Positions 5,793 through 57,204 of a stretch of 64,000 nt of DNA are shown piece by piece. Within the stretch, counting starts at the first letter, position 1. Each line of letters opens with the position of its first letter. The stretch comes from Candidatus Moraniibacteriota bacterium (GTDB taxonomy: Bacteria > Patescibacteriota > Minisyncoccia > Moranbacterales > UBA1568): positions 6,682 to 70,681 of the forward strand of contig JAHFON010000003.1 in the NCBI GenBank assembly GCA_023261695.1. The letters run 5' to 3'. A program made the translations under genes and the position numbers. The notes under the pieces are model-generated. The model saw only the letters and a program-made list of their open reading frames with translations. It was not told where the DNA came from and did not search any database.

Positions 5793-6055
5793 AGCAATTT
5801 AATTCTCAATTATCAATTTCTAAAAATAAAAAACCAGGCTTCTTCCGAAAGACTGGTGCTGAAAAATAGGGAAAAATCTTGTGCATAGGTTCTGTATCCC
5901 TCATAGCCCGGACAAAGCCGTGGGTTCTGCAGGGAAATTTACTGCACTTGCAGTATAGCACAGCGCGCTTTCAGGATAAATCATTGAGGTTGATTATTTT
6001 CTCAAAAACGGGTATGCTAGACGATAGATGTCGGCCGTTTCAGGAGTAAAAATTT

Positions 6056-6433: not shown

Positions 6434-6464
6434 AATAAATTAAAGCCTAAAATTGTAAAATTAT

Positions 6465-20084: not shown

Positions 20085-20101
20085 TATATTTTTCAAACAT
20101 T

Positions 20102-21268: not shown

Positions 21269-21292
21269 CTTAAGCATCTAATCAAAAGAATT

Positions 21293-24138: not shown

Positions 24139-24216
24139 AAAACGTCATACCAGTGACGTTAAATTCTGGTAAGAACTTTGACAATTCAAGCAAAATTTAA
24201 GAAAGGAGAAAGGCGG

Positions 24217-25722: not shown

Positions 25723-25733
25723 AGGGAGATTCA

Positions 25734-27335
25734 ATGCAAACCAAGCGACATATCCAATTCTGGACAATCGCTGAGTCGGAGCCTTCAACACACGAAGACC
25801 TGGAAGAAGGTGTTGGCCCGTACCTTTTGGCCACGATGGCCAAAAGGGCGGGTTACACTGTTTCTTCTTACCAAGCCAGTCAATATGGCTGTGACGCAAA
25901 AGCGATAGTTACTCAGATAAAAACTGACTTGCCGGATATTCTGGCACTCAGCATTTTTTCTGGCGGCATCCATCTCCTTCGTGAAGTTCTAGGTAAGGTT
26001 GATAACGCCCTTCCTGTGATGATCGGAGGGCCCGGAGCAACCAGTGAACCAGCGCGCGTTCTGTCAGAGATCGGCACTTCGCGACAACCAATAGGACCAG
26101 TTGCCCTGGTACAGTCGGAGGGAGAAAGTGCCTTTGCAGCACTCCTCGCAAGTGAACCAGGACAATGGGGTACGATTCCGCAGTGTTGGCGATTGAGCCA
26201 TGATGGGAAAATCCTGTCTGGACAGTTCGGTGCACTGCGTGACCTGGATGAAAAACCGCTGGTTGATCTGTCTTCCAGCGTCATGCGGCGTAAGTGTGAA
26301 GGTGTTTTCCGAGATGATGCGATGCCGTTGCAACAAAGGATTCGTGCCATTCAGGCACTGCAACACTGCTACGTTGAAACTCGCCGTGGGTGTTTTTTCA
26401 AGTGCGAGTTCTGTAGCGAACCGCAACTTACCGTGAAGGGTGTCAGAAAAACATCGCCTGCACGGGCAATTCAAGAGGTGCAGCATCTCTTTGAGAATTT
26501 CGGCATCACGTTCTTCAACTACGCTGATAATATCGCCTTTGATGACGAAGTGTGGTGGCGAACATACGCTGAACTCCTGCAACAACTTCCGTACCATCAC
26601 CTGATCCAGTTTGGCGGTTACGGTACGCCAAAGTTTTTCAGTAAGAAGATGTGGTTTTCGGAAACACTGCCTCTGCTGTGTAGGGCTGGTCTCTGCTTCG
26701 TTACGCTGGGCGTCCAATCGGGATCGCGACGAATTTTGAAAGACATCATCCACCGTCCACCCGATGATCCTGAGAAGGCCATGGAAGTTGTGCGTCAATG
26801 TGCCCCACTAGGATTGAATGTTAAAACAGACTTCATCGTGGGTCATCCCACCGAAACAATTGATGATCTAAAGATGACTCATCGCTGGGTCAGGCAGCTG
26901 TATAACGCTGGAGCACAGGTTTTTGTTCGAAGATTAGGTATCGTTCCCAAATCGGGTTATGATTTCCGCCTTCGTGACAACTTCTACACCCCGCCTGCTC
27001 ATAGTGAGGAGTCAGAAGGTGTTATAACTGACATTCTCTGGTACCACAGCAGAAAGGATAACTGGCTGAAGGCTGTTGCTAACACGCAACCAAATCTGTT
27101 CTTGATTGATCGGGAACAACACACGTTGTTTCCGAAGCCCCGATACGATATGACTACACTTTTGACTGACGCCAAGAAAGTGGTCTATCTACCGGAGCCG
27201 CTCCGAGAGCGATTCACGACACTCTTCGAGTTGGTTATTAGACTGAAATCGTGGCCGTCCCGGTCCCGTGGGAATAACATCTCGCGGGACTTTTTTATTT
27301 TCTTCTCGTCAACCTTTTTGAATTTCGGCGAGTAG
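25734..27335 (+). CDS. Cobalamin(B12)-binding-domain radical SAM enzyme
   Basis: N-terminal Rossmann-like B12-binding region (ILALSIFSGG...PVMIGGPG), canonical CxxxCxxC (CFFKCEFC). RBS aagggag before ATG 25734 (track start is TTG 25719). 11 nt after the HD gene stop, same strand. Confidence 0.75.
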   Translation: MQTKRHIQFWTIAESEPSTHEDLEEGVGPYLLATMAKRAGYTVSSYQASQYGCDAKAIVTQIKTDLPDILALSIFSGGIHLLREVLGKVDNALPVMIGGPGATSEPARVLSEIGTSRQPIGPVALVQSEGESAFAALLASEPGQWGTIPQCWRLSHDGKILSGQFGALRDLDEKPLVDLSSSVMRRKCEGVFRDDAMPLQQRIRAIQALQHCYVETRRGCFFKCEFCSEPQLTVKGVRKTSPARAIQEVQHLFENFGITFFNYADNIAFDDEVWWRTYAELLQQLPYHHLIQFGGYGTPKFFSKKMWFSETLPLLCRAGLCFVTLGVQSGSRRILKDIIHRPPDDPEKAMEVVRQCAPLGLNVKTDFIVGHPTETIDDLKMTHRWVRQLYNAGAQVFVRRLGIVPKSGYDFRLRDNFYTPPAHSEESEGVITDILWYHSRKDNWLKAVANTQPNLFLIDREQHTLFPKPRYDMTTLLTDAKKVVYLPEPLRERFTTLFELVIRLKSWPSRSRGNNISRDFFIFFSSTFLNFGE

Positions 27336-27430: not shown

Positions 27431-27740
27431 GAAATAGGTTCTAACTTGGTACAATAGAGACACAAATAAATAGTTTTTTTGTGCTGTAATTATACACCTC
27501 GTGCGCCATCAGTTCCGTTCAAAGTAGGTTCGGATTTCGTCAAATAAACGCACTATCTAAATAGTACTCCTTTTTGGAATGCTATTTTCAATAATTTGAG
27601 CGGGAGGAATGAGAAGGGCGCGAGTAGAAAGCGAGCAAGCAATCTCTCACTGAAGCTATACAAGCCTCTTTACACCGCGCGAAAAAGAATGTATGCTGGG
27701 AGACAATTGCGTTTTCTTTGTCAGCAGACTTTCCATAACT

Positions 27741-30539
27741 ATGCCGGGAAAAAAATCGGTTATTGAAATTCGCGGCGCGCGCGTCAACAATCTGAAAAAC
27801 GTGAACGTGGACATTCCGCGTGACGCTCTTGTGGTGATCACCGGACTTTCCGGTTCCGGAAAATCTTCTTTGGCTTTTGATACTTTGTTCGCGGAGGCCA
27901 ATCGGCGCTATGTGGAATCGCTTTCTTCGTACGCGCGCAATTTTCTGGACAATCTGGATAAACCGGATGTGGATGCGATTCACAATCTCTCACCGGCCAT
28001 TTCTATTGATCAGAAGAGTGTGTCGCGCAGTCCGCGTTCCACCGTCGGCACAATGACGGAAGTTTATGATTATCTGCGAGTGCTGTTTGCCAAACTCGGT
28101 GTGCCGCATTGTCCTGTGTGCGGCAAGCGTCTGACAAGAAAGAGCGCGCGCGAAATACTGGACGAGATTTTGCGTTTACCTGATGAGACGGCGCTGATTT
28201 TTACGGCTTATAATCCGACCTTGGTTGGAAAAACTGAAACTGAAGCGCTGGTCTCCATTGGCGGTTTAGGTTACGCGCGGGTGTTTTTTCGCGGAACTTT
28301 GTTGACGGTTGCCGAAGCCTCTGCCTTGGCTTCTCCCGTGAAAGTTTCCAAGGTAGAAATTGTTATTGATCGTCTGACTCTGGATTTCTCTCGCCTCGAC
28401 AAGGAGCGTATATTGGATTCTGTGCAGACGGCTTTTCACGTGGGGCAGGGAACATTTGTATTGCGCGTTCCTGCCACCGGCGAAGAGCGTTTTTATAATG
28501 AAGAGTACCTCTGTGAAAAATGCGGCGTGCATTTGCCGGAATTTACGCCGCGGCATTTTTCTTTCAATAATCCTGAAGGGGCCTGCGAGCAATGCGCCGG
28601 CCTTGGCGTAACATTGAAATTTGATCCGGAGCTCATCATTCCCAATAAAAATCTCTCGCTCTCCGAGGGGGCGATCCGTCCTTGGAGCAAAACCAACGGT
28701 GATCGCCATACCGGACAGGGGACGATGCAGTGGCTTCGCGAAGCCAGCCGCCAACACAAGTTTTCGCTGGACGTGCCGGTGAAAAAACTTTCTGCCAAAC
28801 ATTTGAATCTTATATTGTACGGAGAACGCGATGAACGCCAAGACGCTTTTCCGGGAGTCGTGGCACTGCTTCAAAAGAAATACCGTGAGACTAAATCCGA
28901 CCACTCACGTGCCGATATTGAGGCGTATATGTTGGTTAAAATCTGTTCGCTTTGCGAAGGCAGACGTCTGAAAGCCTCGGCGCGGGCCGTGAAGTTGGAA
29001 GGGTTTTCCATCAGTGATCTGACGCGCCAAAGCGTGGCGGCATTTTTGGAAACGCTGAAAGTTTTGCGCGAAAAATTATTGAAGACGGAGAAGTTGAAAA
29101 TTCTTGATCCTTTGTTTCGCGAGATGTCTATGCGTCTGCACGCGGTGGAAAAAGTGGGTTTGGGATATCTGGAACTCTCTCGCGGCGCCGACACTCTTTC
29201 TGGCGGAGAAGCCCAGCGTATACGTCTGTCGGTGCAGATGAAATCCGGGCTCTCGGGCATCATTTATGTTTTGGATGAACCGACCATCGGATTGCACAGC
29301 CGTGACACGGAAAGATTGATCAATGCGCTGGAAGATTTGCGCCGCGCCAATAATTCGCTGGTGGTGGTGGAACACGACGTTGCGATTATGCGTCGGGCGG
29401 ACTATATCATTGATATGGGTCCGGGGGCTGGCAGTAACGGCGGAGAGGTTATTTTCGCGGGCACGCCGAATATGCTTACGCATTCCAAACTTCTGACGGG
29501 GCAATATCTCTCCGGCAAGCGCGTTTTATCCGAAAAGAAACAATCGCGGCGCTTGAGCGAAGCGGCGATTACTATCTGCGGCGCGACCGAGCACAATCTG
29601 AAAAATATTGACGTAACGATTCCTCTGGGTATGCTGGTGGCGGTTTCCGGTGTTTCTGGTTCAGGGAAATCCAGTTTGGTGCATAATATTCTTTCCCGCG
29701 CTTTGTCCAAATATTTCTATCGTGCCAAACTTGAGCCGGGAGCGCATAAAAAAATCACCGGACTTTCCAATCTGGACAAAGTGATCACTGTCACCCAAGA
29801 TCCGATAGGCCGGACGCCGCGCTCCAATGCCGCGACATATACGGGGGTGTTTAGTTTGATCCGCGACTTGTTCGCGGAAACGATTGAAGCGGAGCGTGAT
29901 AAATATTCAGCCAGCCATTTTAGTTTCAATATGCGCGGCGGCCGCTGTGAAGCATGTCAGGGCGGCGGGTTGAAAAAAATTGAAATGTATCTTTTGCCGG
30001 ATGTTTACGTGCCGTGCGAAGTTTGCCAAGGAACGCGGTATAATGCCAAGACGCTGGCCATTGAATATCGCGGAATGAATATTGCCGACGTGTTGCGTAT
30101 GACGATAGCGGACGCGCGGAAATTTTTTCTGGATCAGCCGCTGATTGAAGAGAAATTGCGCGTTTTGGAAGAAGTCGGTCTCGGGTATCTCGTGTTGGGT
30201 CAGAGCGCGACCAATCTTTCCGGCGGAGAAGCCCAACGTATCAAACTGGCGACGGAACTTGCGCGCAAATCAACGGGCAAGACGCTCTATATTCTGGACG
30301 AGCCGACAATCGGTCTGCATTTTGAAGATGTGCGGCGTTTGTTTGAGGTGTTGGAGGCTCTGGTGGCGAAGGGGAACAGCGTGCTGGTCGTGGAGCACAA
30401 TATTGACGTGATTCGTTATGCCGATTGGGTGTTGGAGCTTGGTCCGGAGGGCGGCGAGCAGGGCGGCGAACTTATTTTCTCCGGCAGTCCCGCGAAATTA
30501 AAAACTTGCGCGCGTTCTTTCACGGCAAAGTATTTGTAA
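27741..30539 (+). CDS. uvrA: Excinuclease ABC subunit A (full-length, class I)
   Basis: [20 protein letters not shown]...[14 protein letters not shown], UvrB-binding and insertion domains present, second ABC module [11 protein letters not shown]. About 930 aa from ATG 27741. Confidence 0.95.
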
Positions 30540-44014: not shown

Positions 44015-45497
44015 ATGAAAATACTGGTTTCTCGGGAAGATGCGAATTATTGGCAGAAGAAAGGCGCTTTAGCATTCCGTTTTCAATTTGGAAATGAGAG
44101 TAAAGACGGAATTATCATAGAGCGAAACGGACAACATACGTGCTTTATCGCTTTGGGAGAGAAAGAAAAACCCGCCCGCAACGATTCGCAGGCGAAACGC
44201 GGTGATTCTGGCGGGATGACGCGGCGTAAGCTGATACTTCTGGCACGGCGGGTAGTCTTTGAGGCGTTGAGGAAAAAATACACAAACATCGTCTTGGACT
44301 TCCGGCAGTTTCGTTTTCCGGCAATCAAGATAACTGATGGCGAACTGGCTGAATTATTGGCGATAAACTTTCTGATGGCGAGTTTTGAATTTCGGGATTT
44401 TCTTTCCAAACCGAAAGAGGGGTTTCCAAAAGTAAATACCATTACTCTTGTGAACGCATCCGGAAAAGAAATTCAGAGTGGTATAGAACGCGGTATTATC
44501 ATCGGAGAAGAAGTGAATCATGCTCGGCATATTGCGACGATGCCGGGAGGAAATATGACGCCGGCGATTCTCGCCAAACATACCAAGCAATCCGTGAAAG
44601 GTTTGCCTATCCAATTCAGCGTTTTGAATGAGACGCAAATGGCGCGTTTGAAAATGGGCGGCGTGCTGGCTGTTGGTCAGGGGTCTCAAGAGAAGTCGCG
44701 TTTTATTATTTTGGAATATTTTGGCGCGGGTAAGCCCGCCCAAGGCGGATCCGCCTCTAGCGGAAAAGAAAAACCAATTTGTCCTTGTGGGCAAGGGCGT
44801 GACATTTGATACAGGCGGAATCAATCTCAAACCCACCGATGCCATTCTGGGGATGAATATGGATATGTCTGGCGGCGCGGCGGTTATTCATACGTTGATT
44901 GCTGCGGCTCGTTTGAAGCTTCGGAAAAATATTGTGGCGCTCATTCCGGCCGTGGAGAATGCGCCGTCGGGATCAAGTTATCGCCCCGGGGACGTGCTTC
45001 GTTCAATGTCCGGCAAGACGATTGAGGTGCGAAACACGGACGCGGAAGGCAGAATTATTTTGGCCGACGCGCTTACTTATGCCAAGCGTTACCGACCGGC
45101 GTTGGTTGTGGATGTCGCGACACTCACGGGTTCCGCGGTGGTCGCGCTCGGAGAAAGAGCCATCGCGCTTTTTACGCAAGACGAAAAATTGGAACAAACA
45201 TTTCGTCTTTTGGGTGAGGAGAGCGGGGATTATGTCTGGCCGTTGCCTTTGTGGGACGAGTATGACGAAGACATCAAAGGAGTGTTTGGCGATGTGGCGA
45301 ATGTCGGCAAAACGCGCTACGGAGATGCTATTTTAGCAGCCGTGTTTCTCAAACAATTTGTAGCGGACGCGTATCCATGGACGCACCTGGATATCGCGCC
45401 GCGGATGACGGCTTTACCTGATGAATTTCTAGCTAAAGGTTCCGCCGGCGCTCCCGTGAGACTTTTGGTAAAATTGCTGGAGAAGTTTACGAAGTAG
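44015..45497 (+). pseudogene. pepA: Leucyl aminopeptidase (M17) interrupted by a frameshift near 44745-44790
   Basis: N-part (frame 2, 44015-44809) and C-part (frame 0) with VGKGVTFDTGG and NTDAEGR motifs. A-rich run gaaaagaaaaacc at the junction. Confidence 0.75.
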
Positions 45498-45527
45498 TTG
45501 CTTCAATTGGATCATAAAAATAACTTT

Positions 45528-45555
45528 GCCCTTAGCGGGCATTTTATTTTTTTAT
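45528..45555 (+). terminator. Weak terminator after pepA
   Basis: gccc-ttagc-gggc then attttattttttt. Confidence 0.3.
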
Positions 45556-45594
45556 GGCTTTTTCTAGCCATTTTTTTGGTGTATAACTTTTGTG

Positions 45595-45623
45595 TTGACG
45601 AGTGAATATTGGTGGCATATAAT
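45595..45623 (+). promoter_or_regulatory. Sigma70-like promoter of the dcw cluster
   Basis: TTGACG (45595-45600), 17 nt, TATAAT (45618-45623). Confidence 0.55.
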
Positions 45624-45658
45624 GTGGAAGCAGTTAATAGAAGTGGGTAATAGTGGGG
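45624..45658 (+). promoter_or_regulatory. Putative MraZ operator (direct GTGGG repeats)
   Basis: GTGGA 45624, GTGGGT 45643 and GTGGGG 45653 with 19- and 10-nt spacing, immediately downstream of the -10. Confidence 0.4.
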
Positions 45659-45811
45659 AAACATAGAAAAAGGAAAATTAAAAAATTAAAATTAAAAATG
45701 ACAGATAAAAAACTTTCAAATAAGCAAAATCTAAAACATTTTTGAATTTAACGGGTTTTTCTTTTTGCGTTATCACTTTCCATTTTGATATTTACATTTT
45801 GATTTGAAATT

Positions 45812-46246
45812 ATGTTCATCGGAGAATATACGCACACTATAGATCCTAAAAAGCGTCTGGCGCTTCCTTCCAAGTTTCGCGGCGAACTGGGAAGCAAAGT
45901 CGTAGTGACGCGCGGACTGGATAATTGTTTGTTCGTGTATCCGATAAGAGTCTGGGATGAACTGGCATCAAAATTAGGAACATTACCCGTCGGCGAATCT
46001 GGCACGCGCAGTTTCATTCGTGTGATGTTGGCTGGAGCGACAGATGTGGAACTGGACAGTCAGGGACGCATTCTGCTTCCGGAATATTTGAAAACTGATG
46101 GAGGGTTGAAGAAAGACGTCACCATAGTCGGACTTTTCAACCGTTTGGAGATTTGGGATACGCCCCGGTGGAAAAAATATAAGAATCAAGCAGAGAAGAA
46201 TACCGGTAAGATTGCTGAAGAACTGGGTAAGCTGGGAGTCTACTAA
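45812..46246 (+). CDS. mraZ: Transcriptional regulator MraZ
   Basis: MFIGEYTHTIDPKKRLALPSKFR, duplicated MraZ fold. 144 aa. Confidence 0.9.
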   Translation: MFIGEYTHTIDPKKRLALPSKFRGELGSKVVVTRGLDNCLFVYPIRVWDELASKLGTLPVGESGTRSFIRVMLAGATDVELDSQGRILLPEYLKTDGGLKKDVTIVGLFNRLEIWDTPRWKKYKNQAEKNTGKIAEELGKLGVY

Positions 46247-49461: not shown

Positions 49462-50253
49462 ATGGCCTCGCATCAAAGAAAAATGTTTGAAAATATTTTG
49501 CGTTTTATGGCGTGCGTGGTAATTCGCGCGCGTCAGCCGCTGATTATCGGGATCCTCGGATTATCCGGAAACACATTAACTAAAGAAGCAGTAACTTTGG
49601 TTTTATCCCAAACATATTTTGTCCGTAAGATACAAGGAGAACGCGCTGATGAAACCGATGTTTGGTTGACGATTATCGGCGCGTCAGACGCTCGCGCGCC
49701 GCTTATATATTTGATGGCGGCTTTTTTTCGCTGGCTGGCGATAATGGTTCTGCCTATACGCTATCCGGATGTGCTGGTGCTGGAAATGAACATTGAACAA
49801 CTTGGGGACGCAGAACATTTAATGAGTTGCATACCGATGAAAATCGGCGTGGTTACGCAGATTATCTCAAACGACAACACGTCTTCCGAATTTGCGGGAG
49901 ATGTCGTCAAAAAATATGGGAAGCTGATGGCGCTTCTGCCGGAAGACGGCTTTGCCATTTTGAACGCCGATGATAAACGCATACTTAAGCTTAGGGAAAA
50001 AACGCCAGCCAAAGTTATCACTTATGGTTTTGGCGCAGACGCGTTGTTGTTGGCGGATAACCCGGTTTCTCATCGCGAACTGGGGGGGGATGAAGGATTT
50101 AGTTTCAAACTTAATTATGATGGCAAAACGATACCTGTGCGCTTGCCGAAATCAGCTACCACGGCGCACATTGAACCGGCGCTTACGGCGGCGGCTGTCG
50201 GCATCGCGCTCAAAATGAATCTGGTGGAGATCGTTTCAATTTTGGAAACGTAA
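49462..50253 (+). CDS. Truncated/degenerate Mur-ligase-like protein (MurF/MurE-like fragment)
   Basis: LNADDKR, ITYGFG and a degenerate P-loop GLSGNT in place of GTNGKT. 263 aa, lacks C-terminal domain. Lies at the boundary of the AT-rich island. Confidence 0.45.
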   Translation: MASHQRKMFENILRFMACVVIRARQPLIIGILGLSGNTLTKEAVTLVLSQTYFVRKIQGERADETDVWLTIIGASDARAPLIYLMAAFFRWLAIMVLPIRYPDVLVLEMNIEQLGDAEHLMSCIPMKIGVVTQIISNDNTSSEFAGDVVKKYGKLMALLPEDGFAILNADDKRILKLREKTPAKVITYGFGADALLLADNPVSHRELGGDEGFSFKLNYDGKTIPVRLPKSATTAHIEPALTAAAVGIALKMNLVEIVSILET

Positions 50254-50407
50254 TTTGTTAAATTTTCCTTGATTTGCTACACTAACACCTCACAATCGAG
50301 TGGGTTAATTATGTTGAAATTGTGGAAACAAGTTCTTTATCAATTGAATGTATGATGAAGGAGAGCGTTGGTATTTTACAACAATGAAAAAACTAGGGAG
50401 GGGTATT

Positions 50408-50842
50408 ATGAAGTACATTCATATTCACGTACGAGTTGTTGATCTTGTAGAGATTCTCGGAAAAGACAGGTTTCCCAATCAAGAGGATGAGAAAGTCAAT
50501 GCTGGAGATCTTTTGGAATGGTGTGTTGTTAAATATCCTTCTGGTAATACTGGTAATAAAAATTCTCCCGGCAGAATAGGTGAGGTTTCATTGCTCTCGT
50601 TTCCTGTTCAGTTTATGCAGGACATGTTACTTTCTACCCTTGAGGGAAAAGAGTATGGCGTTGAAGAATGCAGAGGCATGAAGCATGTTCATTCTTGCGG
50701 TTGTATTGAAATCACTCGCTGGGCGCATTTAGATCGCGAGTTTGGCCAGTCTGTTCTTTGCCCAACTTGTAATGACCGCATGTATCGCACCGTTCCTTTT
50801 ATACAAAATACCGTTTCAAAATGTTCATTGCATGCTACATAG
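50408..50842 (+). CDS. Hypothetical Cys/His-rich small protein (first gene of AT-rich island)
   Basis: RBS gggagggg before ATG 50408. HSCGC...CPTC cysteine cluster. Confidence 0.35.
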   Translation: MKYIHIHVRVVDLVEILGKDRFPNQEDEKVNAGDLLEWCVVKYPSGNTGNKNSPGRIGEVSLLSFPVQFMQDMLLSTLEGKEYGVEECRGMKHVHSCGCIEITRWAHLDREFGQSVLCPTCNDRMYRTVPFIQNTVSKCSLHAT

Positions 50843-50980
50843 TCAGCTAACGAAGAAGGGTAGTTTACTATTTGCTGTAAGCCCTCGTGGTGGTAAGTTG
50901 TCCACCACGGGGGACTTTTTATTTTTGGAAAAATACCATATTATTAAATTCGGGTAGTCTATTAATATTGCTTAGTTTGT

Positions 50981-53900
50981 ATGTGCGGTATCGTAGGTAT
51001 TTTCGGAAAAAATAACGCAAGCCAAAGAGCTCGCGCCTCACTGGAGAAGATTGTTCATCGGGGTAGCAATGTGTACGAATTGAAAGATTTTGTAGGAGGA
51101 ACATTGGGGGCGAATAGGTTGCCTATTGTAGACCGTGAATTTGGCCAACAACCTTTGCCGAATGAGGATGGCGGTATCTTTGTTGTACAAAACGGAGAAG
51201 TTTTTAATTACAAGGAATTACAGGCAGAGCTCAAACAAAAGGGTCATAATTTCAAAACCGATTGTGATACAGAGGTGCTTGTACACTTATACGAAGAATA
51301 TCGTGAAAAAATGATGGATAAGATAGATTCTGAAATGTTTGCATTTGTTATTTATGATACCAAGACTAATTCAGTATTTGCGGCGCGAGATGCGTTAGGC
51401 GTTAAGCCATTGTATTATGCAACAGATAAAACTGGACAATTTTATTTTGCATCCGAGATTAAACAACTTTCTTGTTTTGATGACATTAAAAATATTCGTG
51501 TTTTTCCGCCAGGGCATTATTATGAAAATGGTAAGTTTAAACAGTACCTATCATTAAAAATCGGCAATAATATTAAAAATGAAAAGAGAGCAACTAGGGA
51601 GCTCGAGGTGCGCTTAGTAGATGCTGTGAAAAAACGTGTTAAGACAGATTTACCTATAGGTGTGTTGTTATCTGGGGGCGTCGATAGTAGTTTAATCATG
51701 GAAATTGCATCTCGCTTACATCCTGATGTAACTGGAATTATTCTCGGTTATCCTGGTTCGTCTGATCATGAATTCGCACTTCGTTTATGCAAAGAGCGTG
51801 GATATAAATATCATATAGTGAGGCCGGATATAGATTACAAGCAAGAGTTAGATCTGCTGATCTATCACTTAGAAACTTACGAGCCGCTTATTATTAGGCA
51901 ATCATTTGCTTTAGATATTTGCGCGCGTGAAGCGCAGCGGCTAGGGTTAAGAATTGTTTTGGTTGGAGAGGGTTCTGATGAGTTGTTTGGCGGATATAAT
52001 GAATTTTCCAATTTGCCTGATAAACTGATCAACAAGGGCTGCGAGATGTTAGTTAAATCCTTGCATGCCGGACATTTACAACGTGTTGACCGCATGAGTA
52101 TGAAGCATACGGTTGAAGTTCGCTGTCCGTTTTTTGATAAAGATGTTGTAAAATTAGCGTTGCAGATTCATGGGGATCTAAAAGTTAGAAGGCAAAACCA
52201 TCAAATAATAACTAAATATATTGTCAGAAAGGTTGCGGAGAATTTTTTACCCTCTTATATTGCATGGAGATACAAAGTTCCTTTTAGCAATGGAGCCGGT
52301 ATGAATGTGGGAAGTAACTTTAAGGTTCAAGATGGCGATGTTGCAAAAGTAGTATTGCAAAAAGCGGAAGTAAATATAGAGACAGAGGTTGTCAAAAAAT
52401 ATGGTGTAAATACCAAAGAAGGTAGGTATTATTTAAAAAAATACTTTGAATATGGCTTTGATAAAGTTGTTGGTTCAGAAAGGCGTTTAATTGTGAAGGA
52501 CAATTTAGGTGATTTATATAAGGCGAAAAGAACTCGGCTTGTGATGGCTGAATTTGACAGGTTGGCTATATATTTTCCTGTGTATTTTGCCGCCCAAGAG
52601 GGGTATTTCAAAACTCATGATCTTGAGGTGGATTTTATAGCAACTGGAGGTGATGATCGTACGTATGCTTCGCTTGTCAATAACTCAGCTCACATAGGGC
52701 TTGCTGATCCTATGTTTGCAATGTTTGAAAATATCGGGGGAGTAAAAGGTGAAATTATTGGAGAGTTGGTTAATATTGTTCCGAATGTTGCGGTGACAAT
52801 AAACCCAAGTATACAGATTAACGAAATTAAAGATTTTACAAAATATAGGGTGGGGACTTTTCAAAAATTCACTACTACGCACAGCGTAGCGAAATATTTT
52901 TTGCCTTCGCAAACCGAAATTATTCCTTATGATTATGATGAATTAGTCGGGAAATTAATAGATAGAAAAATAGATGTGGCGATAGTTATCCCGGAACAAG
53001 CGGTTGAACTTGTTGCTTCTGGCGGACGGATTGTTTTTGATTTTAAGATTTTAGGTAAAAACTTTTTATTTAGCGGCTTTACGATATCCAATCTGATTGA
53101 ATTAAAATACAGGAAAAAACTCAAGTCTTTTATTAGCGCAATTCGTGAATCAACTCGTTACATTATTAAAAATAAAGAAATTTCATTTAAAACTTTTCAA
53201 AAACTCTTTCCGTATCTAAAAAATCCGCGAGTGATTTTTGATTATTATCTGGATATTTGGTCGCCGACTATTAAGGTTGAGAATTCAGATTATCACGCAG
53301 CCCAAAAAATGTGGAAACAAGTCTGTCCGGAACTCTTGAAAGAATATTTGCCTTATTTCGGAACTAAATCAATTACTGAGCCTGTTCTCGAAAAAATTAA
53401 TGATAGAAATTTTAGGAGAGATTTTCCATTTTTAGAAGATCGTCTAGAAGAATTAATAATCAATTCAATGAGCAACGGCGCTGTTTTAAAATTTATCGGG
53501 TTTTGGGGCGCTGGCAAGAAAAATCGAATTACGACCTTGGATAAAGAAATAATAGACAGATTAAAAAAGTATTTTGATGGGATCAGGAAGGTTTTGGGCG
53601 CGAATATTGAGATTACTTTTATTCTTGCAGATGAGCACGCAAAAAATAACGGTTTCGTTCCCAGAGAATACAATAGTTACCTTTCAGGAATAAAAGAATA
53701 TTTGGAAAAAAATGATTTCAAAACGATGCATTTAAATATTTTATGGAAAAAATGGGGATTAAATCAGAGTTGCATTATTAAATTGTTAGAGAAAAAATCT
53801 GAAAGATGGTGGAGAGATGTTCCGATAGCAGAAAAATTAGAAAATCAGGCAGTAAAGAGATTCCTATTCAAAAATAAAAAAGAGGGGGCGCAAAAATATT

Positions 53901-54067
53901 ATATAATGCGTATGCTTGAGAAATCACATATGGAAAAAAGTTTTAAGGATAGTGTATTTTTTGTCTTTTCAGATGGTGCAATGCAAACAATCTATCCGAA
54001 AATTGCAACTTTGTATTTAAACACAAGAAAACGAGGATTTGGGGAGGCGCCATGGTTTGAGAATTAA
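50981..54067 (+). CDS. Asparagine synthetase-family amidotransferase (class II GATase + PP-loop synthetase) with about 490-aa C-terminal extension
   Basis: MCGIVGIF (Cys2 nucleophile), SGGVDSS PP-loop. Residues 540 onward include a region resembling SsuA/NMT1-type substrate-binding folds, then an unknown domain. About 38% GC. Confidence 0.8.
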   Translation: MCGIVGIFGKNNASQRARASLEKIVHRGSNVYELKDFVGGTLGANRLPIVDREFGQQPLPNEDGGIFVVQNGEVFNYKELQAELKQKGHNFKTDCDTEVLVHLYEEYREKMMDKIDSEMFAFVIYDTKTNSVFAARDALGVKPLYYATDKTGQFYFASEIKQLSCFDDIKNIRVFPPGHYYENGKFKQYLSLKIGNNIKNEKRATRELEVRLVDAVKKRVKTDLPIGVLLSGGVDSSLIMEIASRLHPDVTGIILGYPGSSDHEFALRLCKERGYKYHIVRPDIDYKQELDLLIYHLETYEPLIIRQSFALDICAREAQRLGLRIVLVGEGSDELFGGYNEFSNLPDKLINKGCEMLVKSLHAGHLQRVDRMSMKHTVEVRCPFFDKDVVKLALQIHGDLKVRRQNHQIITKYIVRKVAENFLPSYIAWRYKVPFSNGAGMNVGSNFKVQDGDVAKVVLQKAEVNIETEVVKKYGVNTKEGRYYLKKYFEYGFDKVVGSERRLIVKDNLGDLYKAKRTRLVMAEFDRLAIYFPVYFAAQEGYFKTHDLEVDFIATGGDDRTYASLVNNSAHIGLADPMFAMFENIGGVKGEIIGELVNIVPNVAVTINPSIQINEIKDFTKYRVGTFQKFTTTHSVAKYFLPSQTEIIPYDYDELVGKLIDRKIDVAIVIPEQAVELVASGGRIVFDFKILGKNFLFSGFTISNLIELKYRKKLKSFISAIRESTRYIIKNKEISFKTFQKLFPYLKNPRVIFDYYLDIWSPTIKVENSDYHAAQKMWKQVCPELLKEYLPYFGTKSITEPVLEKINDRNFRRDFPFLEDRLEELIINSMSNGAVLKFIGFWGAGKKNRITTLDKEIIDRLKKYFDGIRKVLGANIEITFILADEHAKNNGFVPREYNSYLSGIKEYLEKNDFKTMHLNILWKKWGLNQSCIIKLLEKKSERWWRDVPIAEKLENQAVKRFLFKNKKEGAQKYYIMRMLEKSHMEKSFKDSVFFVFSDGAMQTIYPKIATLYLNTRKRGFGEAPWFEN

Positions 54068-54091
54068 TGATAATTTTTTTAGTTTTAATAT

Positions 54092-55966
54092 ATGGAAAAT
54101 TGGAATTTGTTAAAGCAGGAGACCTCTGTTGTTTCAGGGGATAGAAAAATTGAACAAGAAGAAAAAGAGCGGGTTATTCGAAAAATTGCTCTTGCGACGA
54201 CCAACCAAATGGATACAGGAATTCGGGCTGTATCTGCAGCACTTAAAGACGCCGGGTTTGATGTCATGAAATTAAATTTATACGAAGATGCTAAACATAA
54301 GACTGGCGCTGATTATTCCGAAGAAGAATTACAGGCTATAATAGAAAAATTGAAAGAATTTGGAACTAATGCTTTTGGTATTTCTATTTTTGAAGTGGGT
54401 TCTACACGGGCTTTTACTTTAATTAAAAAAGTAAAAGAAGTTCTCAAGATACCAGTTTTATTGGGTGGACAACACGCAATTCAGTATCCTGATGAGTGCT
54501 TGCAATCTGGCGCTGACGCAGTCTGCATAGGAGAGGGAGAATCTGGTTTAGTGGAGTTGCTGGAAAATTGGGACAGACGTTTTGAAAGGAAGAATCTTAA
54601 TTTTGTGATTCGGAAAGAAGATTTGGTCAAATTAGATGAATTACGATCCAAGTTATTTACAGAAGAGGAAATAAGTAATTTTACTTTTGATTTTAGTTAT
54701 CACAACTACTTCGTTTTGCGGGAAGGGAAAATGGTTCCTCTGACACCAGATAATGTTAAAAACCCGGAACATCACCAGGTTGATCGTGAAGCAAAAACAT
54801 TTGTTTACGCTTCCGATAGAGGTTGTCCTCTGAATTGTTCTTTTTGTTATATCAGTAATTTGCGTAAAGAATTCATCAAAGCGAGTGTTGCAAAAGGAGA
54901 AAAGCCAATTCCTTTTTTGAGAAGAAAGAAGGCAGGTGCGGTAATCAGAGATCTTGAAGATGCAAAGAGACAGAATTCATGGATAGAATTTTTGAATCTT
55001 ATGAATGATGATACGGCTGCGCGTGATAAAGATGATCTGCAAGAATTTTCAAGGTTGTATAAAGAAAAAATAGGGTGGCCGTTTTATTGTATGGTAAGTC
55101 CGATAAGTCTTTTTGATAAGTCAAAATGGCAAACTGGTAACACCCTGGGTGCAGTAGAGGAAGGAAGATTAAAAATTCAAGCTCTTGTTAATGCTGGATT
55201 GAAAGAATTGAATATGGGTATACAAACGAATGGGAAAACAAATTTTGAAATATATGATAGATGGCAACCAGATGAAGTGATGCTTATGATTACACACATG
55301 CTTCATGAGTTTGCTCGTTTAGACTTGAATAAAAATGAAGACGGTAAAGTGGATTTATTTTTTGATTTTATTATTCATAATCCACTTGAAATGCGAGAAG
55401 ACATAAAGCGCACAATAGAACTTATAAAGAGACTGAAGCCGCCATTTGATCTTGTAGCTCATACTCTATATGTGGGAAAAAGGTCAAGAATGCGCAGCGC
55501 TTATGAATACGAAAAAAAGAAGGCAACACAAGAAGAGAGACCTTATGAAAAGGTTATAGAAGATGTTGTCGGGGAATCGGATTTTCATGATACGCACAGA
55601 TTTTATGACTATCTCAAAGACAATCATAATTTTGTGATTAACTCTGTTATAGAATTTATGGCCGGCAGACATGATGTAAATATGACAGGCAGAATTCCAA
55701 GGCATGCCAAAGATTTGATGGTATTTGATGTGTTTAGAGCGTTACGAGAAAAGCATCCTGATTTTGAAAAATTATTGTTAGAGCTTCAAATTTCAGATTC
55801 ATTGTTGTCTATTGATTTATTTGCTTCAGATAAGGTAGATCGATATTTTAGGGAAAACGAAGGTGTGTTTAAGGAATTATTTGTATCAATGCAAGAAGCG
55901 CATCCGATTTGTTATTCTAATGAAGCCAAGGCACGGACGGGGAGAATTTTAACTCAACAAGAATAA
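54092..55966 (+). CDS. Cobalamin(B12)-binding-domain radical SAM enzyme (second paralog in window)
   Basis: N-terminal B12-binding-like Rossmann (IPVLLGGQHA), CxxxCxxC (CPLNCSFC). AT-rich. Confidence 0.75.
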   Translation: MENWNLLKQETSVVSGDRKIEQEEKERVIRKIALATTNQMDTGIRAVSAALKDAGFDVMKLNLYEDAKHKTGADYSEEELQAIIEKLKEFGTNAFGISIFEVGSTRAFTLIKKVKEVLKIPVLLGGQHAIQYPDECLQSGADAVCIGEGESGLVELLENWDRRFERKNLNFVIRKEDLVKLDELRSKLFTEEEISNFTFDFSYHNYFVLREGKMVPLTPDNVKNPEHHQVDREAKTFVYASDRGCPLNCSFCYISNLRKEFIKASVAKGEKPIPFLRRKKAGAVIRDLEDAKRQNSWIEFLNLMNDDTAARDKDDLQEFSRLYKEKIGWPFYCMVSPISLFDKSKWQTGNTLGAVEEGRLKIQALVNAGLKELNMGIQTNGKTNFEIYDRWQPDEVMLMITHMLHEFARLDLNKNEDGKVDLFFDFIIHNPLEMREDIKRTIELIKRLKPPFDLVAHTLYVGKRSRMRSAYEYEKKKATQEERPYEKVIEDVVGESDFHDTHRFYDYLKDNHNFVINSVIEFMAGRHDVNMTGRIPRHAKDLMVFDVFRALREKHPDFEKLLLELQISDSLLSIDLFASDKVDRYFRENEGVFKELFVSMQEAHPICYSNEAKARTGRILTQQE

Positions 55967-56082
55967 TTGACCGGCTTGCTCAATTAGAAATGTAGGTGTG
56001 TAAATGTATGATAGAGTTTCTGGATTTTTAGTGGGGCTGCATAAGTTCAGATACATTTGGCAGTCCTCTTAATTGAGGACTT

Positions 56083-57189
56083 ATGCAACAATTCAACAAG
56101 TTTAGGGGAACGAAAGGATTTATTGTAGCTTGGCAACATCTGTTACGCTTTCGGTATATGATTACCGAACAAGCGCAAGAACGGTGCCGCAGACTCGCTT
56201 TCTGGGAGCGTCATGGCACCAAGGCAGCCACAGAAGCCTTTCATATCTCAGAACGCACATTGTTTCGTTGGCAGGCGGCGTTGAAAACCTCACGGGGAAA
56301 ACTGGACGGACTTAATCCGAAGAGTACGGCTCCGCGCGCGAGGAATCAAAGAATCGTTTCGCCCCAACTGGCACAAGCTATCATCGCGCTCCGTTTTGCA
56401 CACCCTCGCCTTGGCAAAGACAAGCTCCGGCCTCTGCTTTTAGCCAGCAAGCATCCGGTGTCTGTCTCAACGATAGGCCGGATCCTCGCTGATTTGAAGC
56501 AAGCGGGGAAACTGCCTGATCCAAAGAAGCTTTCTCTGTCAGGCGCTACCGGGAAACTGTTGGAAAAGAAGCGTCAGAAAAGGAAAAAACTGCGGAGACC
56601 AAAGGGACAGAGAGTTCTTGAAGTGGATACCGTTGTCCGTTTCATTGACGGCGTAAAACGCTACATCGTCACGGGCATTGATACGGAAACCCGAGTCGCC
56701 TTTGCCGCCTGCTATACGAATCACGGATCCTCCTCGGCCTCTGACTTCTTGCAAAGAGCCCAACAAGTTATTCCGGATTGTCCGGAGGCCGTCCAGACGG
56801 ATAATGGCAGTGAGTTTGCGCTCCATTTTGAAACGGCCTGTCTGCTACTGGGTCTGACTCATTTCCATACTTATCCCAGATCTCCCCAGATGAATGCTCA
56901 CATCGAACGCTTTAATCGTACGTTAGATGAAGAATTTCTCTGTTACTCCAAAGCGTTAATGCGAGATGATGTCCAGAGCTTCAATCAGAAGCTCATTGAC
57001 TGGTTCCTCTGGTACAATGGCGAAAGGCCGCACTATGCTCTTGGCCAAGTTGCCCCCTTGAGGTATATGATGAGATTATTATTCGCAGAGGACTGCCAAA
57101 TGTGGTGGACGCATACAGGGGCTTGCGTGCTTGCGAGAAAAAAGTTATTATATTTGCAGAGAGAAAATGCGTCGGTTTTTCTCCGCTAA
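56083..57189 (+). mobile_element. IS481-family-like single-ORF DDE (rve) transposase
   Basis: N-terminal HTH, integrase core D...D...E: DTVVRFIDG...IDTETR, QTDNGSEF, ERFNRTLDEEF. GC close to host (about 52%). No terminal inverted repeats could be defined. Confidence 0.75.
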
Positions 57190-57204
57190 GATTTAATTAG
57201 TACA

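Follow-up and report, generated by a model that had tools for sequence, protein, structure and literature searches.

The window analysed here, a 64,000-nucleotide stretch of a contig from a Candidatus Moraniibacteriota bacterium, holds an AT-rich segment between cell-wall and rfb genes, which raises the question of where this DNA came from and what its genes make. The first-pass annotation had read it as a foreign island carrying three cargo genes and followed by a transposase. The features that matter for the argument are listed below in window coordinates.

49462 to 50253, plus strand: murF stump of 263 codons, a decaying pseudogene without the C-terminal Mur-ligase domain
50251 to 56052, no strand assigned: AT-rich foreign block of 5.8 kb, set apart by GC and tetranucleotide deviation and absent from the colinear genomes L035 and L034
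50408 to 50842, plus strand: orphan Cys/His protein of 144 aa with 7 Cys and 6 His, outside the conserved cassette
50882 to 50913, plus strand: terminator-like hairpin between the orphan gene and the cassette, with a 12-pair stem (9 G-C pairs) and then a T-run
50981 to 54067, plus strand: three-domain enzyme (AsnB, THI5-like, PvcA-like) of 1,028 aa, starting MCGIVG, with GATase_7, Asn_synthase and the PP-loop SGGVDS
50981 to 52465, plus strand: domain 1 (residues 1-495), AsnB-type glutamine-hydrolysing adenylating amidotransferase, from matches to TIGR01536 and 1ct9
52526 to 53335, plus strand: domain 2 (residues about 516-785), THI5/NMT1/SsuA-type two-lobed binding-protein fold, Pfam NMT1 at 53.7 bits
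53336 to 54064, plus strand: domain 3 (residues about 786-1028), PvcA/DIT1 (isonitrile synthase)-type fold, suggested by fold and profile evidence
54092 to 55966, plus strand: radical SAM enzyme of 624 aa with a cobalamin-binding domain (B12-binding 54.2 bits, cut-off 32.1)
56053 to 57103, plus strand: IS481-family insertion sequence of 1,051 bp, with IRL at 56,053-56,069 and IRR at 57,087-57,103
56083 to 57189, plus strand: DDE transposase ORF of 368 aa with rve, rve_3 and HTH_32 domains
57104 to 57204, plus strand: resumption of host DNA, the khpA upstream region, from alignment with L035 and L034

Each 500-nt window between 50,250 and 56,249 had a GC content of 0.32-0.41, as against 0.45-0.53 on both flanks. 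By part, GC was 0.362 in the block (50,251-56,052), 0.500 in the insertion sequence (IS) and 0.474 in the remaining window, which places the block at z = -8.1 relative to 228 equally long host windows (mean 0.474, sd 0.014, minimum 0.444). The tetranucleotide distance between block and host was 0.40, compared with 0.134 ± 0.025 (maximum 0.20) for host windows, and GC3 was 0.29-0.35 in the three cargo genes versus 0.48-0.57 in neighbour genes. A second assembly, L003 (Logan SRR14366796), was 100% identical from ftsI through transposase codon 30. The 5.8-kb island is confirmed as a real, compositionally foreign feature, and both the GC drop over 50.3-56.0 kb and the host-like GC of the transposase gene agree with what had first been described, as does the layout of the open reading frames (144 aa, 1028 aa with Cys2 and a PP-loop, B12 radical SAM, transposase).

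Two related genomes, L035 and L034 (FtsI identity 71%), were colinear with the window (PepM17-mraZ-rsmH-ftsL-ftsI-murF-khpA-rfbC-rfbB-rfbD-glyA-rfbA), with a full-length murF and without the insert, so that relatives lack the cargo genes at the equivalent place, which favours an island over an ancestral feature. Since ftsI-murF-khpA-rfb is uninterrupted in both, the block and the IS481 element replaced the last third of murF; together they took the place of the last ~175 murF codons and of the greater part of the spacer between murF and khpA. The host looks to be one of the ultra-small, CPR-type bacteria. The dcw cluster had been thought to be split before murE/murF/mraY, a view that this gene order in relatives does not bear out. 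The truncated Mur-ligase-like ORF reported at the island start is the murF stump, at whose stop codon lies the left border of the block (50,251). Its sole domain is Mur_ligase_M, it covers positions 127-279 of the 418-position murF model, and it matches residues 1-263 of the L035 and L034 MurF proteins (438 and 440 aa), ending …VEIVSILET* where both go on ALETFEPLPGRL. The MurF P-loop GSVGKS has become GLSGNT in the stump, which is 51-53% identical to L035 and L034 MurF (70% between those two), while FtsI identity is 68-71% for all three pairs. By these comparisons the stump has diverged faster than the neighbouring genes and is a decaying pseudogene.

The block originates from another lineage, and its right side is joined to a resident-type IS481 element. 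Like members of this family, the element measures 1,051 bp, has one DDE (rve) transposase gene, whose product carries an HTH at its N-terminus, and ends in perfect 17-bp inverted repeats (ACATTTGGCAGTCCTCT). It differs from them in that its transposase, for which IS481 is the best family (in keeping with the original call), scored 180 bits against NF033577, under the cut-off of 224; in that no target-site duplication was found (flanks gttcagat versus ggtggacg); and in that the ORF reads through IRR into host DNA, 86 nt beyond the right repeat. Host DNA restarts immediately 3' of the right end of the IS, and from ~57,115 onwards it can be aligned to the DNA upstream of khpA in both L035 and L034 (GGGCTTGC…AAAAAAGTTAT…TTTAAT…GTACAATG); this right junction is supported by one assembly only. 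The IS is a passenger, outside the pathway.

Which of the cargo genes belong together became clear from their occurrence elsewhere. The co-occurrence of the AsnB fusion with a B12 radical SAM enzyme, suggested as a search by the first-pass annotation, was found at eight further unrelated loci, from CPR bacteria and a single DPANN archaeon, with the two genes adjacent in either order. The fusion comes first in the window, L031 and the P0023 contig, and the radical SAM gene comes first in L004, L007 and L033, whereas in L008, L009 and the archaeal L016 the fusion is followed by a different B12-type radical SAM enzyme (24-28% identical). All context-checked close relatives of the radical SAM enzyme directly adjoin a ~1,028-aa AsnB-NMT1-Cterm fusion, and relatives of the fusion with the same length and domain order are present in L004 (70% identity), L033, L008 and L009. 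The flanks of the pair are different at each locus and include dnaJ with tRNA-Ala and tRNA-Lys, a restriction-modification/reverse-transcriptase island, a resolvase with ThsB, a HepT/MNT pair, a Y1 transposase and, in L016, an intein-bearing aRF1; in L004 the pair is likewise AT-rich (0.374 versus 0.492). At about five or six loci (L002, L011, L012, L014, L021 and the P0012 contig) the fusion had no adjacent radical SAM gene, and therefore this enzyme is either dispensable or encoded elsewhere. Horizontal acquisition of the island is supported by the empty site in two related genomes together with the same cargo at other sites elsewhere. We found no description of the cassette. The window does contain a second B12-type radical SAM gene (25,719-27,335), as had been pointed out, but its GC is host-like.

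The cassette had been drawn with three genes, of which the first does not belong to it. The Cys/His protein had no match in Pfam, NCBIfam, PDB, PADLOC or PHROG, its sole match among 5.8 billion (5.8e9) proteins was itself, it was missing from every other fetched locus, and its gene is followed by its own terminator. An alternative ATG at 50,348 would extend it to 164 aa, and GGGAGGGG is located 6 nt upstream of the ATG at 50,408. This small protein is a passenger, outside the pathway.

Profile matches agreed with the initial domain calls for the AsnB part and the B12 radical SAM enzyme. Domain 1 scored 340.9 bits against TIGR01536 (asparagine synthase; cut-off 267) and matched E. coli AsnB (1ct9) with E = 2e-62; having passed the TIGR01536 cut-off, it might conceivably just synthesise asparagine. 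Like AsnB and the AsnB-family amidotransferases, it keeps the Cys2 nucleophile, the glutamine-site residues R-L-x-I, N-G-E and D, the SGGxDS-type PP-loop (SGGVDS) and GEGSDE. Unlike AsnB, it reads LIIR in place of TTxR, residues reported to bind aspartate/ATP (PMC5775275), and all family members are non-Thr here ([LQNH][IV][IV]R). The last ~50 AsnB residues, with Cys-523, are absent and give way to a linker and two extra domains, and the score against the AsnB equivalog NF006949 falls below its cut-off (394 vs 499). The extension behind AsnB had been put at 490 aa; it spans about 535 aa, and its identity, now a THI5/SsuA fold followed by a PvcA/isonitrile-synthase fold, points to amino-acid-type chemistry. 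Domain 2, modelled with AF2 at pLDDT 87, had its best Foldseek matches in THI5 (E = 4e-14), ThiY, SsuA and MqnD. Its resemblance to THI5/NMT1 HMP-P synthase, ThiY and SsuA lies in an NMT1 score above the Pfam cut-off and a TM of about 0.7 on the THI5 target; it differs from them in sequence (12-16% identity) and in its place inside a cytoplasmic enzyme. The Lys and His that THI5 uses for catalysis are probably not conserved in it.

Fold and profile evidence suggests a link between domain 3 and isonitrile synthases. The top PDB match of the domain 3 family profile was the isonitrile synthase 9dhm, at a modest 22.5 bits over about 80 residues, and with PvcA, IsnA and Dit1 (PF05141) the domain shares the central I-[LC]-[AS]-D-x-H strand motif and the following Tyr. 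Identity to these enzymes is about 12%, and the window domain is below all family thresholds, including that of Pfam DIT1_PvcA, which the stand-alone relative P0089 alone passes (32.9 vs 26.4). Domain 3 carries GFWGAxxK at the site where PvcA presumably has FPxKSxN, its hosts are CPR and DPANN, and no PvcB/IsnB-type dioxygenase partner lies beside the fusion. Because TyrRS and cyclodipeptide synthases have a similar fold as well, another reaction is possible, for instance with an aminoacyl-tRNA or acyl-adenylate as electrophile. Among the top 150 domain 3 representatives, 38 were fused behind an unrelated ANL adenylating enzyme and 17 behind AsnB, so that domain 3 is joined to two different carboxylate activators; the N-terminus of one ANL fusion (P0113) matched oxalate-CoA ligase with E = 4e-53, and such fusions adjoin carrier proteins and acyltransferases. 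Divergent AsnC/Lrp-type regulators lie upstream in L008, L010 and L033; the stand-alone PvcA-like gene of L017 follows the genes for a regulator and an Asp/Glu racemase. A published parallel in architecture is fungal CrmA, an isocyanide synthase (ICS) fused to an AMP-binding NRPS-like enzyme (PMC5974471). Such hybrids also unite an isocyanide-synthase-type domain and a carboxylate-adenylating enzyme in one protein; however, the adenylating partner in the window is a PP-loop/Ntn AsnB enzyme leading to an amide, not a thioester, it comes first, and the protein is prokaryotic and without a carrier domain. The combination of AsnB, THI5-like domain and domain 3 is absent from the three architectures listed in PMC5974471.

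In the radical SAM enzyme, the three cysteines of the CxxxCxxC motif GCPLNCSFC (C245, C249 and C252) were invariant in 32 relatives. Its nearest solved relatives, by weak profile matches, were AprD4 (E = 4e-12), TokK (6e-10), CysS and TsrM; it shares with these the N-terminal B12-binding-type domain preceding the CxxxCxxC core and differs in a C-terminal region of ~200 aa that matched nothing. No curated NCBIfam equivalog fitted (best 50 bits vs cut-off 251), and it is only from the domain that we infer dependence on B12. AprD4 itself catalyses a dehydration rather than a methylation.

The occurrence of the PvcA-like domain behind an unrelated carboxylate-adenylating enzyme elsewhere suggests that one amino-acid-like substrate is modified at its amine end as well as its carboxyl end. 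PvcA, IsnA and Dit1 convert an amino group into an N-formyl or isocyano group using a phosphosugar-derived carbon. By analogy, the PvcA-like domain would do the same to a small amino-acid-like substrate, with the THI5/SsuA-like domain perhaps holding an anionic co-substrate (phosphosugar) or intermediate; the AsnB domain would then adenylate the carboxyl group and amidate it with glutamine-derived ammonia, and the radical SAM enzyme would methylate, or carry out other radical chemistry at, an unactivated carbon. This three-step scheme in its entirety is tentative, and we would not expect it to hold in every step. Our best guess for the product, by analogy, would be an N-formyl or isocyano amino-acid amide, additionally methylated. 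Alpha-isocyano carboxamides do occur naturally: hazimycin has an isocyanide geminal to an amide (PMC13647977), that is, an isocyanide and a primary amide on one carbon, as predicted for PvcA-like and AsnB-like action on an amino acid, although it is an actinomycete dityrosine-type compound and the comparison holds at the compound level only.

The enzymes could instead act directly on a nucleotide-sugar or peptidoglycan precursor, by amino-sugar N-formylation, amidation of uronic-acid or peptide-stem carboxylates, and sugar C-methylation, for example, which we consider unlikely. O-antigen clusters commonly encode AsnB-like amidotransferases, N-formyl sugars are found together with uronamides in P. 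aeruginosa O6, and AprD4 acts on an aminoglycoside sugar. The island also lies between murF and the rfb genes, from which such a role had been argued; this position, however, results from insertion, the rfb genes of relatives are the same although the cassette is missing there, and the pair is found in at least eight other contexts. At the eight other pair loci it is flanked by chaperone, tRNA, restriction-modification, toxin-antitoxin or transposase genes, not glycan genes. The ANL-PvcA-like fusion of L044 sits within an O-antigen-type cluster (Wzt, DegT aminotransferase, PglD-like acyltransferase, GT2, GT4, carrier protein), an arrangement that equally fits an N-modified amino acid which is first loaded on the carrier protein and later joined to an amino sugar; a glycan-linked destination for the product is therefore conceivable. 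A GT2 gene adjoins the stand-alone domain in L020, and in L004 the pair has GT2 and GT4 genes at a distance of 1.7 kb, but the latter are at host GC, beyond the AT-rich block. The pair is not accompanied by any glycosyltransferase, nucleotidyltransferase or sugar aminotransferase, and profile searches assigned none of the proteins to a known O-antigen pathway.

Less probable still is a role in defence, in which the pair would make a toxic or antiviral small molecule, or modify a nucleic-acid component, as an anti-phage or conflict system. Defence or mobile genes often flank it: type I restriction-modification, a Shedu-like SduA_C domain, PDDEXK and reverse transcriptase in L007; resolvase, methylases and ThsB-TIR on the P0023 contig; a HepT/MNT pair, DUF3800 and a type IIG-like methylase in L031; and Fic, RhuM and TnsA-like genes in L001. 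Variable regions gather all sorts of accessory genes, though, several loci adjoin housekeeping genes, the pair was not found on viral contigs, and in PADLOC neither the fusion nor the small protein had a significant match, while the radical SAM enzyme had negligible ones only. Very doubtful as well is that domain 1 is the organism's asparagine synthetase and that the extra domains and the radical SAM enzyme serve unrelated salvage, such as thiamine-pyrimidine handling. The TIGR01536 and E. coli AsnB matches, the THI5 and ThiY folds closest to domain 2, and stand-alone PvcA-like genes adjoining glycolytic and aminoacyl-tRNA synthetase genes in some CPR/DPANN genomes would suit this reading; the replaced TTxR residues and lost AsnB C-terminus (PMC5775275) and the missed NF006949 cut-off do not. 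Moreover, the fusion gene is accessory, since close relatives lack it and it lies on a foreign island both in the window and in L004, and salvage leaves the radical SAM pairing and the recurrent PvcA-like fusion unexplained. Finally, a RiPP pathway had been raised. In such a pathway the Cys/His protein would serve as the precursor, which the AsnB-like enzyme would cyclise or amidate and the B12 radical SAM enzyme would methylate. Lasso cyclases, which are AsnB homologues, and B12 radical SAM methylases are established RiPP enzymes, and a small Cys-rich ORF does lie upstream on the same strand; yet this orphan is absent at all other pair loci and cut off by a strong terminator, no conserved small ORF accompanies the pair elsewhere, the lasso-cyclase model gave 135 bits against a cut-off of 525, and the glutaminase site is intact in domain 1, unlike in lasso cyclases. 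This reading is close to refuted.

The initial interpretation is thus partly supported, and on balance we lean towards the explanation as a whole in which a foreign island carries a mobile two-gene cassette that tailors an amino-acid-like substrate. Metal binding or antibiotic action is typical of isonitriles. The two genes that form the functional cargo make up a self-contained cassette, which moves horizontally and is no accessory of the dcw or rfb genes. Its product is probably a modified amino-acid-like compound of an unusual kind, and this small metabolite would be either secreted or attached to the cell surface.

The AT-rich composition that the first-pass annotation had claimed for this region proved real and sharp. 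All 500-nt windows across 50,250-56,249 had a GC content of 0.32-0.41, against 0.45-0.53 in the flanks on both sides, and the block as a whole (50,251-56,052) stood at 0.362 compared with 0.474 for the remaining window (z = -8.1 versus 228 host windows of equal length). The tetranucleotide distance between block and host was 0.40, host windows lying at 0.134 +/- 0.025 with a maximum of 0.20, and third-position GC (GC3) was 0.29-0.35 in the cargo genes versus 0.48-0.57 in their neighbours. Nowhere in the rest of the 64-kb window did we find a GC break near that of the block. Two lesser dips were present, at 45,250-46,000 (0.35-0.39), upstream of mraZ, and at 19,000-22,000 (0.41-0.44), where a DUF2339 membrane protein, a thrombospondin-repeat protein and two ORFs without a Pfam match are encoded. 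The ORF positions and domain calls of that annotation were likewise borne out, and are listed here with the features added in this analysis.

Features of the island and its borders (window positions)
49,462-50,253: truncated murF stump (Mur-ligase fragment)
50,408-50,842: small protein of 144 aa, with 7 Cys and 6 His
50,981-54,067: fusion enzyme of 1,028 aa, comprising an AsnB-type domain 1 (1-495), a THI5/NMT1/SsuA-type domain 2 (~516-785) and a predicted PvcA/DIT1-fold domain 3 (~786-1028)
54,092-55,966: B12-type radical SAM enzyme (rSAM)
56,053-57,103: insertion sequence (IS) of 1,051 bp with an rve/IS481-like transposase and perfect 17-bp inverted repeats (56,053-56,069 and 57,087-57,103)

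Scanning metagenome contigs for FtsI yielded two relatives, L035 and L034 (FtsI 71% identical to that of the window), which are colinear with the window over 12 genes (PepM17-mraZ-rsmH-ftsL-ftsI-murF-khpA-rfbC-rfbB-rfbD-glyA-rfbA). Both have an empty site, with a full-length murF (438 and 440 aa, respectively), khpA directly next and no insert. In the window MurF ends after residue 263 (…VEIVSILET, then stop), where the relatives continue with ALETFEPLPGRL…, and host DNA is back ~10 nt past the right IS end, the khpA upstream region then aligning with both relatives. It follows that 6.85 kb took the place of ~650 bp, made up of the final ~175 murF codons and most of the murF-khpA spacer. The earlier expectation that murE, murF and mraY would follow at this point does not fit the synteny; since the local dcw block of this lineage ends with murF, no murE- or mraY-like gene is expected here.

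The P-loop of the murF stump has changed from GSVGKS to GLSGNT, and the stump is only 51-53% identical to either relative, the two relatives being 70% identical to each other; FtsI and RsmH show no such asymmetry among the three. The stump, with its broken P-loop and faster divergence, is decaying. As this is the only murF copy within the 64-kb window, either a second murF lies elsewhere in the genome or the organism has stopped adding D-Ala-D-Ala to its peptidoglycan precursor, and the destruction of the gene by the insertion raises the question of how, or whether, that precursor is completed. Also in the dcw surroundings, the M17 leucyl aminopeptidase gene (44,015-45,497) is split by a frameshift into overlapping ORFs at 44,015-44,809 (profile positions 2-74) and 44,673-45,497 (74-310), representing a pseudogene or a sequencing error. 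Elsewhere in the window there are two UvrA-like genes (15,593-18,175 and 27,693-30,539) with uvrB and uvrC nearby; the first product (860 aa) has no match to the UvrA DNA-binding domain and the second has one.

An assembly artefact is an unlikely origin for the island because a second assembly (contig L003, from Logan SRR14366796) is identical to the window from ftsI through the transposase start, and because the murF stump has decayed. This independent contig breaks off within the IS, as would be expected of an element with several genomic copies. With its deviant composition, the empty site in relatives and the presence of its cargo elsewhere, the block is a horizontally acquired island. As an island it is ordinary, and every cargo domain comes from a known superfamily.

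We found no integrase in the window, no flanking direct repeats or att-like sites around the island, no tRNA at its border (tRNA scan on L003) and no Rfam family, riboswitches included, across 49.4-57.7 kb. The sole mobile-element sign at the border is the IS, which has a host-like GC content of 0.50, forms a unit separate from the AT-rich block and has no target-site duplication at its flanks. Its transposase is of the rve-type DDE class, with IS481 as the best family (score under the family cut-off), and the ORF overruns the right repeat by 86 nt, into host sequence. The missing target duplication fits an IS-associated deletion or recombination at the junction, not a simple hop.

The cargo turned out to be shared with other genomes. 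Among close relatives of the window rSAM (49-75% identical), every one with an examined context directly adjoins a ~1,028-aa fusion of AsnB, NMT1-type and C-terminal domains, in either gene order, and in three further loci found via the fusion (L008, L009 and L016) the gene immediately downstream of it encodes another B12-type radical SAM protein, 24-28% identical. Altogether the cargo pair was present in eight further loci, with different flanks at each.

Order and flanks of the gene pair at other loci
L004/L005: rSAM then fusion, the fusion being 70% identical to the window's over its full length; flanks of L004, dnaK-dnaJ and tRNA-Ala/tRNA-Lys
L007: rSAM then fusion; restriction-modification/Shedu/reverse-transcriptase region
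L033: rSAM then fusion
L031/L032: fusion then rSAM; flanks of L031, HepT/MNT pair
P0023 contig: fusion then rSAM; resolvase, methylases, ThsB
L009: Y1 transposase
L016: archaeal release factor aRF1 with an intein

In L004 the pair is again AT-rich relative to its host (GC 0.374 vs 0.492), and it begins right behind tRNA-Ala and tRNA-Lys. These varied flanks and the repeated AT-richness therefore indicate a mobile, self-contained cassette, and we hold the conclusion of an acquired island carrying such a cassette with high confidence. The pairing is not obligatory, since the fusion occurs without an adjacent radical SAM gene in L002, L011, L012, L014, L021 and the P0012 contig. No cassette relatives were found on viral contigs or in PLSDB plasmids, where the P0113 query matched only ordinary AMP-binding enzymes. 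At the tRNA border of L004 (9013-9243), 21 nt resembling the anticodon arm of tRNA-Lys recur 106 nt onward (9,223-9,243); the repeat is only partial and may be a tRNA remnant of integration. The aRF1 gene of L016, a Woesearchaeota contig, lies at 4946-7564 on the minus strand, and its intein contains a LAGLIDADG endonuclease and an HTH insert; an intein-bearing aRF1 beside the cassette means that this contig is really archaeal. The bin label Gammaproteobacteria looks doubtful for L021 (CAZUKA010000002.1), where the three-domain fusion has a GC content of 0.30-0.33 and flanks almost without Pfam matches.

At three loci a tandem AsnC/Lrp-type HTH regulator lies divergently upstream of the cassette, on the minus strand.

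Tandem AsnC-type regulators
L008: 5506-6531, minus strand
L010: 1657-2640, minus strand
L033: 6779-7768, minus strand

Regulators of this type typically sense amino acids. These three are 78-81% identical, which exceeds the conservation of the cassette proteins there, and are possibly carried along with the cassette in one sub-lineage.

The first-pass annotation had described a three-gene cargo. The fusion and the rSAM are indeed conserved as a pair, but the small Cys/His protein does not belong to the cassette: its gene is absent from all other cassette loci, and the protein has no relatives among 5.8 billion proteins and no match in PDB, Pfam, NCBIfam, PADLOC or PHROGs. The gene is preceded by a Shine-Dalgarno sequence of its own and ends in a strong terminator. 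Across 16 loci no conserved small ORF that could be a candidate precursor lies beside the enzymes, with the exception of a 75-aa ORF common to L008 and L010.

Domain 1 of the fusion matches E. coli AsnB with E = 2e-62, and scores 340.9 with TIGR01536 (cut-off 267.1) and 394.5 with NF006949 (499). The glutaminase residues MCGIVG (Cys2), R-L-P-I, N-G-E and D, taken from the glutamine-site list in PMC5775275, align with E. coli AsnB, and the PP-loop is intact (LSGGVDSS vs SGGLDSS). Since Cys2, the glutamine site and the PP-loop are all intact, the activities expected of domain 1 are glutamine hydrolysis, adenylation of a carboxylate and amide formation. Two alterations leave room for an acceptor other than aspartate. 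The Thr-Thr-x-Arg motif, whose residues are involved in aspartate and ATP binding (Boehlein et al., cited in PMC5775275), reads LIIR in the window vs TTIR in AsnB, with the Thr pair absent from every family member, and the match to the AsnB model stops at position 506 of 554, so that the last ~50 residues, Cys-523 included, are missing. Domain 2 is a Pfam NMT1 match that shares its two-lobed binding-protein fold with THI5, ThiY and SsuA (Foldseek E = 4e-14).

The last domain was modelled alone, as the Foldseek search of the 534-aa two-domain model was dominated by binding-protein matches, and is predicted to adopt the PvcA fold. With a profile built from 59 family members the top PDB match was the isonitrile synthase 9dhm (E = 5e-4), and the strand motif I-[LC]-[AS]-D-x-H is common to the family and the isonitrile synthase alignment. 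Against Pfam DIT1_PvcA (PF05141, cut-off 26.4) the stand-alone relative P0089 scored 32.9 and P0085 fell below at 21.8; domain 3 of the window had no match. The NCBIfam TyIsonSynPvcA score was 19 against 600. No PvcB/IsnB-type Fe/2-oxoglutarate dioxygenase was adjacent or fused among the scanned neighbours. The signatures of a cyclodipeptide synthase (CDPS; a catalytic Ser after strand 1) and of a class I aminoacyl-tRNA synthetase (aaRS; HIGH and KMSKS motifs) are lacking: strand 1 is followed by GFWG[AVIG][GS]xK, in which neither a Ser nor a His is invariant, and there is no KMSKS.

A profile search of 1.84 billion representatives placed domain 3 in a family of 592 clusters. The CPR-type motif was present in 23 species genomes, which belong to CPR bacteria (Moranii-, Nomura-, Sacchari- and Paceibacterota, Roizman-, WWE3 and Curtissbacteria) and DPANN archaea (Woese-, Pace- and Micrarchaeota), plus two MAGs labelled Methanosarcinales and Gammaproteobacteria.

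Architectures of domain 3 among the best 150 of 592 representatives
Stand-alone: 85
Behind a ~500-aa ANL adenylating enzyme: 38
Behind AsnB: 12
Behind a THI5-like domain: 9
Behind AsnB and a THI5-like domain: 5

In the ANL class, unrelated to AsnB, the N-terminus of P0113 matched oxalate-CoA ligase 5ie0 with E = 4e-53. As both the ANL and the AsnB fusions recur, the PvcA-like domain has been repeatedly joined to two unrelated carboxylate-adenylating enzymes, the simplest reading being that the two partners act on two ends of one substrate. In both L043 and L044 an ANL fusion is accompanied by a carrier protein; in L043 an LpxL-like acyltransferase also lies next to it, and in L044 it is embedded in an O-antigen-type cluster that also encodes a DegT aminotransferase and a PglD-like acyltransferase. 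Stand-alone PvcA-like genes had no consistent partner, their neighbours being enolase, PGK, iPGM, aminoacyl-tRNA synthetases, a racemase, creatininase, IMPDH and GT2; in L017 an AsnC/Lrp-type regulator and an Asp/Glu racemase precede the gene.

The rSAM has an invariant CxxxCxxC motif (C245, C249, C252; GCPLNCSFC) and a B12-binding domain (PF02310, 54.2 vs 32.1); for PF04055 the window protein scored 26.4, just below 29.5, and close relatives pass. Motif and domain together make it a predicted class B (cobalamin-binding) radical SAM enzyme, assignable to class only: it falls in no characterised NCBIfam subfamily (best 50 bits vs a cut-off of 251), and its nearest solved relatives, AprD4, TokK, CysS and TsrM, gave weak scores, the best (AprD4/TokK) over partial regions only. 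A second B12-type radical SAM gene does exist in the window, as previously reported (25,719-27,335; Radical_SAM 58.7 bits, B12-binding 29.8 bits; 21% identical to the island enzyme), directly preceded by a gene for an HD-domain and CitG-like protein (24,178-25,722). Given its host-like GC it does not look foreign, contrary to the earlier count of two foreign cassettes built around such an enzyme, and it suggests that radical SAM enzymes of the cobalamin type are already part of the host's repertoire.

From these domain assignments we tentatively propose a chemistry for the cassette. The PvcA-like domain would turn the amino group of an amino-acid-like substrate into an N-formyl or isocyano group, perhaps with an anionic co-substrate held by the THI5-like domain; the AsnB domain would amidate the carboxylate; and the rSAM would methylate or otherwise rearrange the product. 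Precedents exist for the two halves of this proposal: in hazimycin an isocyanide and a primary amide are geminal (PMC13647977), and in fungi an AMP-binding NRPS-like enzyme and an isocyanide synthase are combined in CrmA, the paper on which lists only three isocyanide synthase architectures, none with AsnB (PMC5974471). Literature searches returned nothing usable on the hazimycin gene cluster or on a structure paper for 9dhm.

That the enzymes act directly on a sugar or peptidoglycan precursor, as earlier argued from the dcw genes upstream and the rfb genes downstream, is unlikely. Some glycosyltransferase neighbours and the O-antigen-type context of L044 speak for it, but position in the window carries no weight, because it results from an insertion and the cassette moves without glycan genes; a tie to the rfb or dcw genes was rejected, the empty-site relatives having the same genes in the same order without the cassette. 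A role in defence, for which the neighbourhoods are the sole support, seems improbable, as PADLOC gave no match for the fusion or the small protein and only partial matches for the rSAM (E = 2e-4 and 6e-3). Plain asparagine synthesis is likewise improbable, since it would leave the accessory status, the altered aspartate site and the partnerships unexplained. Least credible is the RiPP-like pathway also raised in the first-pass annotation, which is contradicted by the orphan small protein and by the lack of a conserved precursor ORF beside the pair across loci.

A further, speculative reading is that domain 3 may represent an unrecognised isonitrile-synthase branch wired to carboxylate activators (AsnB in CPR/DPANN, ANL in other bacteria), and that the fusion and rSAM may form a pathway, exchanged between Bacteria and Archaea, to new N-formyl or isocyano, C-methylated amino-acid amides made by ultra-small episymbionts. 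We found no published description of the PvcA-fold clade, of its fusion to AsnB and THI5-like domains or of the pairing with a cobalamin radical SAM enzyme in CPR/DPANN, and in this sense all three appear new. The PvcA fold is poorly understood beyond Tyr/Trp isonitrile formation, and its recurrent fusions to two unrelated adenylating enzymes offer a testable handle on what else it does. CPR bacteria and DPANN archaea are regarded as organisms of minimal metabolism that live off their hosts, and these ultra-small episymbionts are considered nearly devoid of secondary metabolism. A conserved, mobile, cobalamin-dependent cassette common to both would show investment in specialised small-molecule chemistry, the product of which might function in metal capture, in antagonism or in interaction with a host.
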